Shown piece by piece: positions 1,387 through 32,790 of a DNA stretch of 46,154 nucleotides; position 1 is the stretch's first letter; each line of letters opens with the position of its first letter. The notes under the pieces were generated by a model that had not been told where the DNA came from, made no database searches, and saw only the letters and a program-made list of their open reading frames with translations. Source of the DNA: Methanosarcinales archaeon (GTDB lineage: Archaea > Halobacteriota > Methanosarcinia > Methanosarcinales > Methanogasteraceae); the NCBI GenBank assembly GCA_030604085.1, contig JAUVWP010000002.1, positions 1-46,154 of the forward strand, read 5' to 3'. A program made the translations under genes and the position numbers.

Positions 1387-4016
1387 TCTGGTGCCTCCAT
1401 CACGTCCTTTACGATTCGCTGTATGTGGTAACGATCGAAGCCGCGTGACGGGTCAACTCCGTCCTCGCCGTATTTTGCCTGCACGATCATGCCACGGGTG
1501 TCCCTGACCGTGCCGTCATGCTGCGCCTCCAGATCCTGAAGCGCATTCACCATCCTACGCTGGAGATACCCTGACTGGGACGTCCTGACAGCAGTGTCCA
1601 CGAGACCCTCCCTGCCACCGATGGCGTGGAAGAAGTACTCGACCGGAGAAAGCCCGCTCTTATACGATGCCTGTACAAATCCGTGCGCCTCTGCGCCGCG
1701 ATCTCCTTTCTTGAAATGCGGAAGCGTTCTACCGGAGTAGCCCCGCTGGATGCGGGCACCCCGCACCGACTGCTGTCCGACACACGCCGCCATCTGTGCA
1801 AGATTCAGCATCGAGCCACGGGCTCCTGATACCGCCATCGCAACCGCAGAGTTATCGATACCAAGATGCAATCCTGCCTTGTCGCCAGCCTCGTCACGAA
1901 CCCTTCCGAGAATCTGCATGATCCGAAGCTCAAGCGTCTCTTCGCTGCTTCGCCCGGGCAGCGACTCAAGCTCGTTATGTTCATACTTGTCGATCAGACT
2001 TGCGATGCTCTCCTTTCCGTACATCGCGTCCTTATTAATCTCCTGTATCTGTTTGACCGCCTCTTTCGGGATATCCTCATCATCGATTCCGAAACTGAAT
2101 CCGTGATACATGATGCCCCGGATCGCAAGGTTTGTCATATTGTCAATAAACGCTGCCCCGGCAGCAGTCCCAAACTCCCTAACTATCTTGTTTACTATCT
2201 TTCCCTTGAACGCGCCGATCGATTTCTCATCGATGGTCCCACAGAGCAGTTCCCCATTACTTATGACGACATACGCATCGTTCGGGCAGTTCTCCTTCTT
2301 GCATTCATCACATTCCTCGCATATCTCTGCATTATATTCGAGGTTTAACCCTTCTGGTAGAATCTGGCTGAATATCTGCTTTCCGGTCCAGTATGGGGTG
2401 CCATCCTCGATATAGTCAGGCTGCGGCAGGTCGCGCACCCCTGATTTCCGCAGGATCTCGAGTGCGCTGTTCTTGTCGATCGCTTTCTCACGCGTCAATA
2501 GGAACATGCCTGTTATGTGATCGTGTATTCCGCCGATGATCGGACCGCCAAATCTTGGCGAGAGGATGTTCTCCTGAACCCGCATCAGTATCGCTGCCTC
2601 TGCCCTTGCCTCCTCGTTCTGCTGTACATGGAGATTCATCTCATCGCCATCGAAATCAGCGTTGTACGGCGGGCAGACCGCTGGATTTAACCGGAACGTC
2701 TTTCCGGGCATGACCCTGACCTCGTGCGCCATGATGCTCATCTTGTGAAGCGACGGCTGCCTGTTGAAGAGCACGATGTCGCCCTCCTTGAGGTGCCGGT
2801 CCACGAACCATCCGTATTCGAGCATATCTGCAATCTCCTCGCGGGTCGTATCGCTGATTCGCAGTCTGTGCCCATCTGTCCGGACCACGTAGTTCGCGCC
2901 CGGGTGATTGACCGGACCGCGGCGCACGTACTCCCTGAGTTCCTCGATGTTTCTCGGCACAACCTTAAACGTGACTGTCAGTTCTCTTGCAATCGCCTCA
3001 GGAATGCCGACCTCGTTGATCGACAAGTTAGGATCCGGCGAGATAACAGTCCTCGCGCTGAAATTGACACGCTTGCCAGAGAGATTGCCCCTGAACCGCC
3101 CTTCCTTCCCTTTCAGGCGCTGGGACAAGGTCTTCAAAGATCTTCCGCTCCTGTGCCTTGCCGGAGGTATCCCTGAGACGCTGTTGTCCATAAAAGTGGT
3201 TACATGGTACTGCAAGAGTTCCCAGAGATCCTCAATGATCAACTGCGGCGCGCCCGCTTCCTTATTCTCCTGGAACCTCTGGTTTATCCTGATAATGTCA
3301 ACGAGTTTGTGTGTCAGATCGTCCTCGCTTCGCTGCCCTGTCTGAAGTATGATCGACGGGCGCACAGTGACCGGCGGCACAGGCAGCACCGTCAGGATCA
3401 TCCATTCGGGGCGCGCGTTGTTCGGGTCTATACCAAAGACAGGGAGATCTTCATCCGGTATGTGCTCGAACCAGTTCCTGATATCGCTTGGAAGCTGTTT
3501 GTCCCCGTCCTCATAATACGTGGTCGGTTTTTCGTACGTGATCTTCAGTTGGTGCTCGCCGCAGTACGGGCACACTTCGACCTTGCTCGCCTCGGCAAAG
3601 ACATATTCAACCGGCGAATCGATGGTCTGCCCCTGACTCCTCCGAGCCGCGATCTGCTCGATATACTCTTTCTTCCGCCCTGCATCCAGAAGCAGTCGGC
3701 TGCAACTTCTGCACGTACTCCTGAGCAGATTCCGTATCTGCTTGGCAAACCCGACGTGCACGCAGGGTGCCACCAGTTCTATGTGCCCAAAATGACCCGG
3801 GCACTCCCCAGCCCTTCCGTTGCAGGTCTTGCACCGCAATCCCGGATCGATGACGCCGAGTCTGGGATCCATGAGCCCCATATCGATCGGAAAACCATCC
3901 TCATCATAAGTATCTGCCGTGATAATCCTGGTGACGCTCATATTCCGGTATTCCCGCGGCGAGATCAAGCCGAATTTTATCCGTGAGATTCTCTTTGGAG
4001 CACTGATCTGTTTCAT
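1383..4016 (-). CDS. rpoA1: DNA-directed RNA polymerase subunit A'
   Basis: The ORF 1383..4100 contains the zinc-binding N-terminus and the catalytic NADFDGDEMN motif. The likely start is the ATG at 4014-4016 (MKQISAPKRISRIKFGL...), because the 28 upstream codons look non-coding. Confidence 0.95.
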   Translation of the reverse strand: MKQISAPKRISRIKFGLISPREYRNMSVTRIITADTYDEDGFPIDMGLMDPRLGVIDPGLRCKTCNGRAGECPGHFGHIELVAPCVHVGFAKQIRNLLRSTCRSCSRLLLDAGRKKEYIEQIAARRSQGQTIDSPVEYVFAEASKVEVCPYCGEHQLKITYEKPTTYYEDGDKQLPSDIRNWFEHIPDEDLPVFGIDPNNARPEWMILTVLPVPPVTVRPSIILQTGQRSEDDLTHKLVDIIRINQRFQENKEAGAPQLIIEDLWELLQYHVTTFMDNSVSGIPPARHRSGRSLKTLSQRLKGKEGRFRGNLSGKRVNFSARTVISPDPNLSINEVGIPEAIARELTVTFKVVPRNIEELREYVRRGPVNHPGANYVVRTDGHRLRISDTTREEIADMLEYGWFVDRHLKEGDIVLFNRQPSLHKMSIMAHEVRVMPGKTFRLNPAVCPPYNADFDGDEMNLHVQQNEEARAEAAILMRVQENILSPRFGGPIIGGIHDHITGMFLLTREKAIDKNSALEILRKSGVRDLPQPDYIEDGTPYWTGKQIFSQILPEGLNLEYNAEICEECDECKKENCPNDAYVVISNGELLCGTIDEKSIGAFKGKIVNKIVREFGTAAGAAFIDNMTNLAIRGIMYHGFSFGIDDEDIPKEAVKQIQEINKDAMYGKESIASLIDKYEHNELESLPGRSSEETLELRIMQILGRVRDEAGDKAGLHLGIDNSAVAMAVSGARGSMLNLAQMAACVGQQSVRGARIQRGYSGRTLPHFKKGDRGAEAHGFVQASYKSGLSPVEYFFHAIGGREGLVDTAVRTSQSGYLQRRMVNALQDLEAQHDGTVRDTRGMIVQAKYGEDGVDPSRGFDRYHIQRIVKDVMEAPE

Positions 4017-10104: not shown

Positions 10105-10123
10105 GCCAAAAAAGGTGAATAAT

Positions 10124-11248
10124 ATGAATAACAAGATCACAATGTTAGTATTGTCCGCGGTGTTGATCGCTGTGGCGCTTTCGGGAAGCGTGCAGGAAAC
10201 TTCAGAGATTGGAACGCCGGGCGGGGTGCCGCAACCGGGTGTAATGCCGGATGCGACTTCACCAGTGCCCACCTCGGAACTGGCATCATCTGGTGAACCA
10301 ATCCCCCCATTAAATCAGTATTTAGATAATTTGATATCTATAGAAATATTCTTTTCGGATAATGTAACAGAGCCACTCCATGTGAATCAAACATTCAACC
10401 TGACATGGGTTATAATGCCGCATGGCAACATATCAGCAGAAGTAGGGCTAAGTAATCTAAGTAATCTAAGTAATCTGGCATGGGGTAATCTGCGAACATT
10501 CGTTTTATTGGATGGCAATACAACATGGAAGGGTGACCTGATAGCCAATAAATCGGTAAAGCAGAATCTAACTCTAAAAGCGTTAGAGCCGGGGGAATGA
10601 ACAATTACAGCCACTGCCCAGCCAATCACCGGAAAAAAAGAAGAATCCGAAACCGAACCACTTGTAAGCCTGACCCCTCGTCCAATAGCACCGATACTGG
10701 GCAGATGGAGTAAGACTATAACAGTCATAGGAAATGATACCCCTAATGCCTCTATTTCAACCGATAAACTTGTTTATGAAGAGGGAGAACCTGTTAAGGT
10801 TACGGTAACACCAATGGATAAAATTTATACATGGAATTATGCATATTTCACTTTTTATAGATGGGAGGATGGGGGATGGAATATGATACCAATCGAGCCA
10901 TGCGGAGCAGGTGGAATATTGCCTTTTCAGGTGCATAATCATGATGGGTGGTGTATAGATTTTATTTTGAAAGTTGACCACGTCGACCCCATTGTTAAAA
11001 CATGGGATCAAAGAGAGCTTGTCAGACGCGAACTTGGAGAACGCTCAGAGTATGTTTATGAGCCGGCTCCATGTGGAAGGTACAAAGTTGGATATAAATT
11101 TTATATTTATGCAAGCGGTGGCGAGAGAACTGTTGAAACCGAGTTTGAGATAATAGAAAGGACTGATAAGGGAGATCAACGAATGAATTATCCCGATTAC
11201 TTCGAAACACTGATGACCCGGATTAAACAGATTTTCACAGGTTTTTAG
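10124..11248 (+). pseudogene. secreted, N-glycosylation-sequon-rich protein interrupted by one in-frame TGA (10598-10600)
   Basis: AAGGTGA Shine-Dalgarno then an ATG at 10124. Signal-peptide-like N-terminus (MNNKITMLVLSAVLIAVALSGS), a Pro-rich linker and many NxS/T sequons. ORFs 10115..10600 and 10814..11248 share a frame with no other stop between them. Confidence 0.5.
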
Positions 11249-11388
11249 TCAGCTGGTTTCTGCCGCACTCTGATATCAACTGATATCCCGCTTAAGGGCA
11301 GGTACTCAGCCTTTGGCGAAGAGAAGCAGCGATTGGAGCGGATCAAACACTCGGCAAACAGTATATTTCGACAGTTTTTTATAGATCG

Positions 11389-11562
11389 ATGGCACAGGTA
11401 TCGCATATAACTGACTGGAAAGAGACGCTGGAACGGATAGCACCGACATCTCGCCACTATCCTGGATGGCGCTGCCCGAGCAGGAACTATAATATGCAGC
11501 CATCGAAAACGCAAAAAAATTGTGATATGGCTATAACTACAACCGAGAGGATTGTTACATGA
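11389..11562 (+). CDS. 57-codon chimeric small ORF (expression uncertain)
   Basis: The ATG at 11389 sits where the GTG at 8651 sits in the duplicated segment. Product: MAQVSHITDWKETLERIAPTSRHYPGWRCPSRNYNMQPSKTQKNCDMAITTTERIVT. Its TGA overlaps the deaminase ATG (ATGA at 11559-11562). Below the ORF-track size cut-off. Confidence 0.25.
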   Translation: MAQVSHITDWKETLERIAPTSRHYPGWRCPSRNYNMQPSKTQKNCDMAITTTERIVT

Positions 11563-21125: not shown

Positions 21126-21338
21126 ATCTGGAGCTCGGCTTTTTGAACATGCTCAGGGCTTGTTGGGGAATAACCTACCTGAATTCGTGCTATTACCCAA
21201 ACGCGTGAGTTCATGACTGTGAGTGCAAGCGAAGCGAAGCCGTTGGCATAAAATCGGCACCAAGGGATGGCTGCGCCTTTGCTTGCGCATCCACGAATAA
21301 ACGAACATATAGGAAAATATAAAAACTATAGAATAATC

Positions 21339-22213: not shown

Positions 22214-22231
22214 CCCAAACTGTTCACCAAA

Positions 22232-22392
22232 CTTTTCACAAAAGTTTGATCAAAAACTGCCCTTCGGGTTGGAGACCGGTTTTTTTCACTTACAAACTTT
22301 CCACAAAGGTTTGATGGTTCCGCTGGTGCTCCGCATTCAAAAACTGGTTTCCGACCCGAAGGGCAGTTTTTACTCGATTTTTTGTGAAAAAA
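22232..22392. repeat. MITE-like element / long imperfect inverted repeat in a convergent intergenic region
   Basis: The arms 22232-22285 and 22339-22392 are reverse complements. The core 18/18 match is AAAAACTGCCCTTCGGGT (22252-22269) against ACCCGAAGGGCAGTTTTT (22354-22371). TTTTCACAAAA modules flank it, and a third copy of the TTTCCACAAAGGTTTGAT module lies in the spacer. Confidence 0.5.
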
Positions 22393-22420
22393 TCGTGTGA
22401 AAGAATCGGAAAAAATAGGC

Positions 22421-26848: not shown

Positions 26849-27067
26849 GGTTCTGTGCAAGTGTAATAGTCCGGGTTCCAGTCGGTCAGGAATTGCATAT
26901 CACCCCCAACCCAAGTCCGGTTTACTCTTCTGGGGGGCGGCATATAAGGGTTTTGAGACCGCGGGTTTTGCATAATCCGGGCAATGTCTAAAAATCCGAG
27001 TGTTTTTGTAATGGTCAGTTGGATGCACAACAACGCGACTGACCTAAATAACATCGGTAGGAAATAC

Positions 27068-27138
27068 AACCACAGAGGGCACAGAGGGACACGGAGGATC
27101 GATTTAAAAACTCTGTGCTCTTCGTGTCCTCTGTGGTT
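27068..27138. repeat. palindromic element built from inverted triplets of 9-bp units
   Basis: Left arm CACAGAGGG CACAGAGGG ACACGGAGG (27071-27097). Right arm CTCTGTGCT CTTCGTGTC CTCTGTGGT (27111-27137). The outer 11 bp, AACCACAGAGG / CCTCTGTGGTT, pair perfectly. Confidence 0.6.
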
Positions 27139-27216
27139 AAATCCGGTGGCTTTTACCGCTTGTGTGGGATCGATTTGACCACAACAAAATTCGAGTGTTT
27201 TCCGCCGATTTACTCG

Positions 27217-27885: not shown

Positions 27886-28455
27886 ATGGGACATCCACGC
27901 AAATATCATAAAACATACAGCACGCCAAGACATCCATGGCAGGCAGAGAAACTCGCATTCGAGAGTGAACTGGTCAAGACTTACGGGCTTCGGAACAAGC
28001 GTGAGGTCTGGACTGCCGAGAACATCCTTCGTAAGTACAGGCGCGCTGCACGCAGATTGCTCGCCGAATCCGCAGCAAAGGGAGAACTTGCCGGACATAC
28101 GAAAGATGAGGCAGACCAGATCATTGCATGATTGCAGCGTTACGGAGTTCTGAAGAGTGATACAAATCTGGACGCTATCCTGAGTCTTGAGATCGGGGAT
28201 ATCCTCGAACGGCGTCTCCAGACACAGGTGTACCGGCAGGGACTTGTGCACAGTATGCGCCAGGCGCGGCAGTTCATCACGCACGGACACGTTGCAATAT
28301 CCGGGCGCAGAACGTCGGTGCCGAGTTACATCGTATCAAAGGAAGAAGAGATGCTGATCGACTATTACAAGAACTCTCCACTTGCGCATGAAATGCACCC
28401 TGAGCGTCCGACCAGAGTTCAGGAAGGGGATAGCATACTGGACAAGGAGGCATGA
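27886..28455 (+). CDS. rps4: 30S ribosomal protein S4 (uS4), with an in-frame TGA at 28129-28131
   Basis: ORFs 27886..28131 and 28132..28455 share a frame and together give a full-length uS4: [18 protein letters not shown]...DQIIA*LQRYGVL...[13 protein letters not shown]...[10 protein letters not shown]. Confidence 0.85.
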
Positions 28456-28849: not shown

Positions 28850-28863
28850 GATTTAGATTAGAT

Positions 28864-29058
28864 TTAACAGGGCTTGTCGGATCGACAGCACTGTTTCGCG
28901 ACCCATGATTCGAGTGCGCGGTTGAAATCCTCGGCATCCATGTAAATTTTGCCGCAAACCGGGCACTGCGATCCATTTATATCTCTACCGTATCGGTTGA
29001 GAGTCGTTGGCACGGTCAGCGCGCCGCATTCACATCGCATGGTCTGTGGTTCGGGCAT
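28864..29058 (-). CDS. small Cys-rich (zinc-ribbon-like) hypothetical protein
   Basis: 64-aa ORF with CEC...CPVCG and a C-terminal CC...C. It is convergent with rps11 and I recognise no homology. Confidence 0.4.
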   Translation of the reverse strand: MPEPQTMRCECGALTVPTTLNRYGRDINGSQCPVCGKIYMDAEDFNRALESWVAKQCCRSDKPC

Positions 29059-29165
29059 GCTGATGATATGATGCTGGGTGCGGGATTAAACTTGCTGTTC
29101 ATGCTCTGTATCCTGCCATCCTGATTTAGACTATTTTAGATCCGTGCACAGGAGAAGATAAGACA

Positions 29166-29173
29166 TTTAAAGA
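29166..29173 (+). promoter_or_regulatory. TATA-box-like element upstream of tgtA
   Basis: TTTAAAGA lies 24 nt upstream of the tgtA ATG (29190), consistent with a leaderless mRNA. Confidence 0.45.
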
Positions 29174-29189
29174 TAGACGAACCACCATC

Positions 29190-30677
29190 ATGTCCCACTT
29201 CGAGATCACACACAAGGACTCAGCAGGCCGGATCGGAAGATTGCATACCGGTCACGGGAGAATCGAGACCCCGACCGTCATGCCTGTGGTAAACCCGAAC
29301 ATACAGATGATACCCGCGTCCGAACTCACGAAATTCGGGGCAGAGATCGCGATCACCAATGCGTACATCATCTACCAGAACCCGAAACTGAAAGAACATG
29401 CGCTGGACAGAGGCGTGCATTCCCTGCTCGATTTCGATGGTGCGATCATGACCGATTCGGGATCGTACCAGTTATCAGTGTACCACGACATCGATATCTC
29501 TTCAGAGGAGATCATCCGCTTCCAGCAGATGATCGGCTCTGACATCGGTGTACCGCTCGACATCCCGACGCCGCCTGATGTGCCGCGTGAGCGCGCCGGG
29601 TCAGAGATGAGGACGACGATTGAGAGGTGCGAGGCGGCGCACAGGCTTATGGAGTCGGACGGGCTGGCTGGTTCAATGCTCCTTGCAGGCACCGTGCAGG
29701 GATCGACCCATCCGGACCTGCGGTACGAATGCGCTCGCTCGCTCTCCAAAATCGGCTTTGACATCTACCCGATAGGTGCGGTTGTGCCGCTGCTTGTGAA
29801 CTACCGGTTCGCTGATATGGTGGATGCGATCGTGGCGTCGAAGAAAGGGCTCTCTCCGGCTGCGCCTGTCCATCTCTTTGGCGCAGGGCATCCTGCGATG
29901 TTTGCGCTTGCGGTCGCGCTTGGATGCGATCTCTTCGATTCGGCAGCGTATGCGCTCTATGCGCGGGACGGGAGGTATCTCACCGCTGACGGGACCTACC
30001 ATCTGGCTGATCTTAAGTATCTTCCATGTTCCTGCCCTGTATGCGCATCGCATACTGCAGATGAATTGAGAGACGAATTTGCAAGCGGAAATTATATTTC
30101 ACTTGCAGAGCACAACCTGTATGCGACGTTTGAGGAGATCCGGACCATAAAGCAGTGTATCATCGAGGGCAACCTCTGGGAACTCGTCGAGCGCAGGTGC
30201 AGGGCGCATCCGAGACTGCTTGATGGGCTCAAGCGTGCCATCTGTCATACAGACTGGATTGAGAGGTTCGATCCGATCCAGAAGTCGACGTTCTTCTACT
30301 GCGGAAGCGAATCCGCATACCGGGCAGAGGTGCTCAGGTTCGGTGAGCGGCTCGACCGGTTCGATCTGGACGGAACCGTGCTTGTGCGGACCCTGAAAGT
30401 TAGGGAGGAGGCGGATCGGTTCGATCATGTGCTCAATCTGAAAGCGCCGTTTGGTGCATATCCTGTGGAACTTGGCGAGACGTATCCGTTCAATGCAGAG
30501 GTGCCCCGGTCGTCAGAACCGGATTACGAGGCGGCTTCGGTTGCGCTCGGAAACGTGCTTCGCCTGATCCGACAGAATCCCGACGCAAGGTTTACGGTCG
30601 TCTGCGAATGGAAGCATCCGCTCCTTGCAGAGATCGTGGCTTATCCGAATGCCCGGGGAGATTTTACCCATCAATAA
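29190..30677 (+). CDS. tgtA: archaeosine tRNA-guanine transglycosylase
   Basis: MSHFEITHKDSAGRIGRLHTGHGRIETPTVMPVVNP, MTDSGSYQ, and a zinc site CSCPVC...H, typical of ArcTGT. Confidence 0.9.
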   Translation: MSHFEITHKDSAGRIGRLHTGHGRIETPTVMPVVNPNIQMIPASELTKFGAEIAITNAYIIYQNPKLKEHALDRGVHSLLDFDGAIMTDSGSYQLSVYHDIDISSEEIIRFQQMIGSDIGVPLDIPTPPDVPRERAGSEMRTTIERCEAAHRLMESDGLAGSMLLAGTVQGSTHPDLRYECARSLSKIGFDIYPIGAVVPLLVNYRFADMVDAIVASKKGLSPAAPVHLFGAGHPAMFALAVALGCDLFDSAAYALYARDGRYLTADGTYHLADLKYLPCSCPVCASHTADELRDEFASGNYISLAEHNLYATFEEIRTIKQCIIEGNLWELVERRCRAHPRLLDGLKRAICHTDWIERFDPIQKSTFFYCGSESAYRAEVLRFGERLDRFDLDGTVLVRTLKVREEADRFDHVLNLKAPFGAYPVELGETYPFNAEVPRSSEPDYEAASVALGNVLRLIRQNPDARFTVVCEWKHPLLAEIVAYPNARGDFTHQ

Positions 30678-32640: not shown

Positions 32641-32790
32641 TCCAAGCAGGAGTGTCGCATTGCGTGTGTTATTCGTGCTAAAAACGATCATGTAAAATGT
32701 TCAAAACCGTAGTAACACCAGATGGCGTGACACCTCATCCAAGCGATATGATTATATGATTGTACCGTATAATATCGCGGAGTGACCGAT

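Follow-up and report, generated by a model that had tools for sequence, protein, structure and literature searches.

The stretch of DNA analyzed here (hereafter, the window) comprises 46,154 nucleotides of a MAG from the order Methanosarcinales, which the names attached to near-identical proteins identify as ANME-2c, 'Candidatus Methanogaster'. It includes a gene for ribosomal protein uS4 (rps4), whose frame of 189 codons is broken at codon 82 by an in-frame TGA. Translation of the frame bore out the preliminary description of this DNA, which had reported it as uninterrupted apart from this one codon. The portion that follows the internal TGA matches the Pfam S4 family (PF01479) with an E-value of 2e-13, and the gene closes on a natural TGA terminator, all S4 sequences of the genus ending in ...KEA and a stop. 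Upstream of rps13 lies an element of about 190 nt that is MITE-like, each of five congeners containing dozens of matches to it (80-95% identity); contigs of the closest congener and of a second, independent assembly described below (Logan) break at this repeat. Dispersed short repeats occur at window positions 27001-27202, about 21150-21300, 22215-22416 and 32671-32738. Downstream, rps11 (28856-29189) is followed by a gene for tRNA-guanine transglycosylase (29190-30677) and not by rpoD; contig C27 carries a gene resembling that of RNA polymerase subunit D where its large ribosomal-protein operon ends (Logan L161:3736-4527).

To place codon 82 in context, we compared the gene with rps4 of relatives, as the preliminary description had proposed. 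An intact S4 gene that lacked any internal stop was present in 29 of 30 related genomes, and all 19 relatives that were fetched and aligned carry Arg at this codon. When taken as a whole, the uS4 frame of the window exhibits 92-99% protein identity to the intact 189-aa S4 of the ten congeners that possess the gene, and codon 82 is CGA or CGG in every one of them. In the closest congener (G003), which is 99.5% identical in the S4 gene, the codons on either side of codon 82 are the same as in the window and codon 82 itself is CGA. This identifies the change as C to T at position 28129, the CGA-to-TGA transition that had previously been guessed. The four JGI metagenome contigs that match the site all read CGG, and seven other assemblies encode residue for residue the same S4 with Arg82, using CGA or CGG and thus having C at 28129. 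TGA was found at codon 82 in none of the congeners, the four JGI contigs or the seven assemblies. Exact look-ups of the C-terminal S4 fragment, in the window and G003 versions, returned no record. Judged from these alignments, the C-to-T change at 28129 is private to this assembly, and codon 82 of the S4 gene that functions in the organism almost certainly encodes Arg.

Table. Positions in the window of the interrupted genes, of their in-frame stops and of single-base changes private to the assembly.
Feature	Position	Strand	Remark
Secreted-protein gene, no Pfam family, broken by the second in-frame TGA of the window	10115..11248	+	
In-frame TGA, Trp in congeners (EPGEWTITATA)	10598..10600	+	TGG to TGA, G-to-A transition
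Private C to T in the uS13 gene	27816	+	ACA Thr to ATA Ile by frame inspection; neither the same-strain Logan contig nor any of the 14 relatives checked has it
uS4 (rps4) gene, 189 codons, broken at codon 82	27886..28455	+	Sole copy in the assembly
In-frame TGA within uS4	28129..28131	+	Ancestral codon CGA or CGG (Arg82)
Natural TGA terminator of uS4	28453..28455	+	Position common to all genus relatives
Private G to A	29165	+	Not in the same-strain Logan contig L153, nor in the five congeners compared
Private G to A	30305	+	Absent from Logan contig L153 and from the five congeners compared
Private G to A	30643	+	Absent from Logan contig L153 and from the five congeners compared

The second in-frame TGA of the window interrupts a gene for a secreted protein. 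Orthologs of this gene in two congeners, G009 (locus L086) and G011 (locus L087), are unbroken across the site and carry Trp there, indicating that the stop arose from TGG. The G011 ortholog bears a CAG-to-TAG change of its own. Exact look-ups of the product in both forms returned no record. The gene resides within a 1.45-kb segment (window 10105-11558) that is missing from five congeners, the flanks overlapping by about 148 nt in G003; its orthologs in G009 and G011 are 80-84% identical. Given its absence from the former genomes and the presence of the gene in the latter two, the segment is a cassette that is mobile or that varies in its presence among members of the genus.

We then compared the whole MAG assembly (2.0 Mb, 181 contigs, 94.6% complete) with approximately 290 kb fetched from G003, of which 243.5 kb could be aligned. 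G003 has C:G where the MAG has T:A at 3709 sites, versus 3202 sites in the reverse direction, an excess of about 500 (roughly 6 sigma), and every class of transversion is symmetric. At the codon level, in ORFs of 200 aa or more (55,086 codons), the C:G-to-T:A excess amounts to +130 at the first codon position, +86 at the second and +126 at the third. This even spread indicates a load that is blind to coding; nonsynonymous counts are 642 for the MAG versus 436 for the reverse direction. Private changes were also polarized with five congeners as outgroups. Changes unique to the MAG run from C to T 4.19 times as often as from T to C in the window (28,159 sites) and 4.33 times as often on contig C27 (11,587 sites), and the corresponding ratio in each of the five other genomes is 1.3-2.3. 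The excess corresponds to 3.9 per 1,000 C:G sites, which extrapolates to approximately 4,000 extra C:G-to-T:A changes in the genome, or about 0.2% of bases and 0.4% of C:G pairs. One of the private changes alters the S13 protein of the window, an exact look-up of which returned no record. Within the window, no significant strand-coordinated clusters of private changes were detected (runs test, z -0.71; neighbor pairs). Relative to G003, the C-to-T excess depends on sequence context: it peaks at ACA, ACC and CCC, with 12-15 per 1,000 sites, and the values for TCN, GCC and ACG are close to zero.

A load of this kind is expected to create premature stops, and these were counted in the same set of codons by homology to G003. 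The MAG has a stop where G003 has a sense codon at 11 positions (six TAG, two TGA and three TAA, in place of Gln, Trp or Arg), 9 of which are clearly internal. All of the clearly internal stops derive from CAG, CAA, CGA or TGG by C:G-to-T:A changes, and among the 11 only a single C-terminal case is not such a transition from one of these codons. By the same comparison, G003 has 3 stops in 53,560 codons. The codons compared contain 2,417 sites at which a C:G-to-T:A change makes a stop, so that 9.4 stops would be expected without selection at 3.9 per 1,000. The 9-11 observed match this expectation, indicating that the changes are unselected. Scaled to about 598,000 codons, the assembly would hold roughly 100 premature stops. 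For these counts only dominant ORFs were used, as a plain tblastn scan was swamped by shadow frames. An alternative scan for split ORFs, based on codon usage, found no enrichment of TGA (32 of 68 candidates, compared with 50% of all same-frame pairs); it was noisy and missed S4, and homology to G003 was used in its place.

The broken genes include those for Orc1/Cdc6, TiaS, a LeuA-like synthase, CobN and alpha-2-macroglobulin. Ribosomal protein eS4 is likewise affected, its gene being broken by TAG at C27:6573-6575 (locus L115), where all five of five congeners have CAG; an exact look-up of the eS4 N-terminal fragment returned no record. Eight further private G-to-A changes lie within 3 kb of the ribosomal-protein operon on C27, some of them paired at a distance of 5-10 nt (5861/5866, 6076/6086 and 8158/8163). 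In other MAGs of the genus, transitions have likewise created a small number of in-frame stops (CGA to TGA, TGG to TGA, CAG to TAG), at about one third of the rate seen here; examples are found at G003 loci L101:3221 and L105:8570 and at G011 locus L087.

An independent assembly of the same strain provided a direct comparison. Exact-protein look-ups identified three Logan contigs of run SRR14872665 (L051, L153 and L161; 8,072 nt in all), which share the strain-specific differences that separate the MAG from its congeners. The two assemblies differ at 15 sites in these 8,072 nt. At 13-14 of them a T:A pair in the MAG stands against C:G in Logan, the congeners siding with Logan; one further site (27425) is a G-to-A change private to Logan. 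The Logan copy of eS4 is intact and reads CAG. In the ribosomal-protein operon, seven of the nine changes that the MAG alone carries relative to Logan are nonsynonymous and one is nonsense. Written for the plus strand, the differences between MAG and Logan comprise 12 G-to-A and two C-to-T changes. At the S4 site itself, L051 ends exactly at 28128, one base before the T, and the next contig of the run starts at 28261; the other end of L051 adjoins a dispersed repeat. Such an end is as expected of a C/T branch at 28129 in a de Bruijn graph, although the two alleles are deduced from the break and not proven. Since the Logan contig breaks here instead of running through with C, some of the DNA molecules sampled may actually have carried the T allele. 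No literature was found on run SRR14872665 or on the neighboring MAG accessions.

Together, these comparisons reveal an excess that consists of C:G-to-T:A changes only, is private to the MAG, is unselected and is missing from the independent assembly of the same strain. We therefore consider it very likely that the S4 TGA is one private C-to-T change within this assembly-wide load, either a deamination-type artifact or an unfixed variant, and that no special decoding is involved. According to this explanation, C:G-to-T:A changes strike the MAG irrespective of codon position and of how important a gene is, and a stop of one of the three kinds results wherever CAG, CAA, CGA or TGG is hit, for a total of about 100 false premature stops. 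We infer that deamination caused the load, and its origin in the tube, as opposed to the few cells sampled, is a matter of inference as well. Cytosine deamination might have been carried into the consensus through, for example, damaged template combined with low coverage, or through low-input amplification; alternatively, sub-clonal variants could have been picked by the assembler. In contigs assembled de novo from ancient DNA, C-to-T change through cytosine deamination serves as the standard signal of damage (PMC8323603), and when low-input samples are amplified, temperature-driven deamination during lysis is recognized as giving rise to false variants (PMC8214697). Several observations weigh against the explanation: the T allele may exist in some of the DNA sampled, private changes in the window form no clear strand-coordinated clusters, the 2-3 stops of this type in G003 point to a low background of real or artifactual nonsense in MAGs of the genus, and the S4 site lies in an ACG context, which does not belong to those with the largest excess.

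The preliminary description had listed an error, a very recent mutation and recoding without choosing among them. Its last option loses support, for the reasons given below, and the load argues for an error mode. The same division applies to its proposal that the two TGAs of the window have a shared cause, either an error mode or a suppressor: the TGG-to-TGA transition at 10598 fits the former, and the occurrence of TAG, TAA and TGA alike argues against the latter.

Real, unfixed mutations in vivo would account for much of the same evidence. The MAG might derive from few cells or genome copies (a single consortium, or heterozygous polyploid, senescent or dead cells) that had undergone spontaneous deaminations, so that the TGA allele would be natural in some genome copies, beside intact copies or derived from them. 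The independent Logan contig breaks exactly at 28129, five of the six Logan contig ends adjoin C:G sites, which hints at a C/T mixture among molecules, and Logan has the private G-to-A change of its own noted above; a pure C:G-to-T:A load is, in addition, the spectrum of spontaneous deamination. However, damage in vitro fits these same observations equally well, and nothing among them separates the tube from the cell. Moreover, nonsense stands at its neutral expectation even in essential genes, suggesting that these copies were never tested by growth. On balance, mutation in vivo seems unlikely. The more specific form of this scenario appears improbable as well, namely that the load is biological and stems from few copies (one ANME consortium or polyploid cells) with unrepaired deaminations, the S4 nonsense allele residing in living or recently living cells and being buffered by intact copies in the same cell.

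Programmed read-through or recoding, in which a suppressor tRNA, Sec-like insertion or leaky termination would yield full-length S4, is far less probable. Both in-frame stops in the window are TGA, which is the leakiest stop codon and at which near-cognate reading can insert Arg or Trp. Elsewhere in the genome, however, the in-frame stops are mostly TAG, with TAA as well: a search for conserved genes broken by TGA alone, as suggested in the preliminary description, instead recovered stops of all three kinds. The tRNA with anticodon UCA that had also been proposed as a target was not found by ARAGORN, with or without introns, in the 2.0-Mb, 94.6% complete assembly. In intron mode, ARAGORN did report a 'tRNA-Stop(tta)' (C145:25863-25966, minus strand), a candidate ochre suppressor. 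Its loop, c-u-UUU-a with a 28-nt intron after position 37, indicates that the program had misplaced the intron of a tRNA-Lys(UUU), a tRNA otherwise missing from the set, and the candidate was rejected. Rfam elements in the window were limited to two tRNAs, and the 121 nt from the S4 TGA onward fold no better than shuffled sequences (z -0.41). TGA ends 725 of the 1249 ORFs of 200 aa or more (58%) and is thereby the commonest terminator, which excludes the genome-wide reassignment of TGA that had earlier been judged unlikely. Because stops of all kinds occur, no tRNA-UCA was found in the assembly and none of the relatives has TGA at codon 82, the suppressor or read-through option raised in the preliminary description fails.

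A true S4 pseudogene, backed by an unassembled intact copy or by a split S4 that restarts at the TTG at 28132 (a possible start codon) after the TGA, is very hard to credit: although about 5% of the genome is unseen, the assembly has a single S4 match and not the second intact rps4 copy that had been envisaged, just one of the 29 relatives with the gene has a second match and a weak one (E 3.8e-4), the protein is otherwise identical to intact orthologs, implying no decay, and the same kind of stop occurs in many other single-copy essential genes.

For the preferred reading, a private change within a C:G-to-T:A load, the consequences concern data quality and hold nothing new for biology: S4 is not recoded, and the TAG in eS4 and the TGA at 10598 share the same trivial cause and give no reason to follow them up as recoding. 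The assembly apparently represents its species in the GTDB-based genome collection that we searched. Some 4,000 of its transitions and roughly 100 of its premature stops seem to be false, which makes it an unreliable basis for gene calls, pseudogene counts, dN/dS values and leads to 'novel recoding'.

These features can be set against three known systems. In UGA recoding (selenocysteine) and in genetic codes 4 and 25, as in the window, a TGA lies in frame within a conserved essential gene and full-length protein would result if it were read through. Unlike those cases, the TGA here is conserved in no relative, the two sites ancestrally encoded different residues (Arg in uS4, Trp in the secreted protein), and TAG and TAA break other genes in the same manner; TGA is the main terminator, no tRNA-UCA was found in the assembly, and the Rfam matches in the window included no SECIS-like element. 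DNA cytosine deaminases, such as APOBEC-like enzymes and DddA-type interbacterial toxins, would likewise produce a pure C:G-to-T:A load. The TC context is the preference of DddA and several APOBECs. Mutagenesis by such an enzyme was considered and set aside, as there is no excess at TC; the lack of significant strand-coordinated clusters in the window and the absence of the changes from another assembly of the same strain are further points of difference. Artifacts of cytosine deamination offer the closest likeness, since the excess is solely C:G to T:A, blind to codon position and gene function, and private to one assembly. The case described here differs from the usual artifacts of this kind in that the contexts are uneven, with more changes at ACA, ACC and CCC and none at TCN, and in that the changes are found in the consensus of a deposited MAG and not merely in reads.
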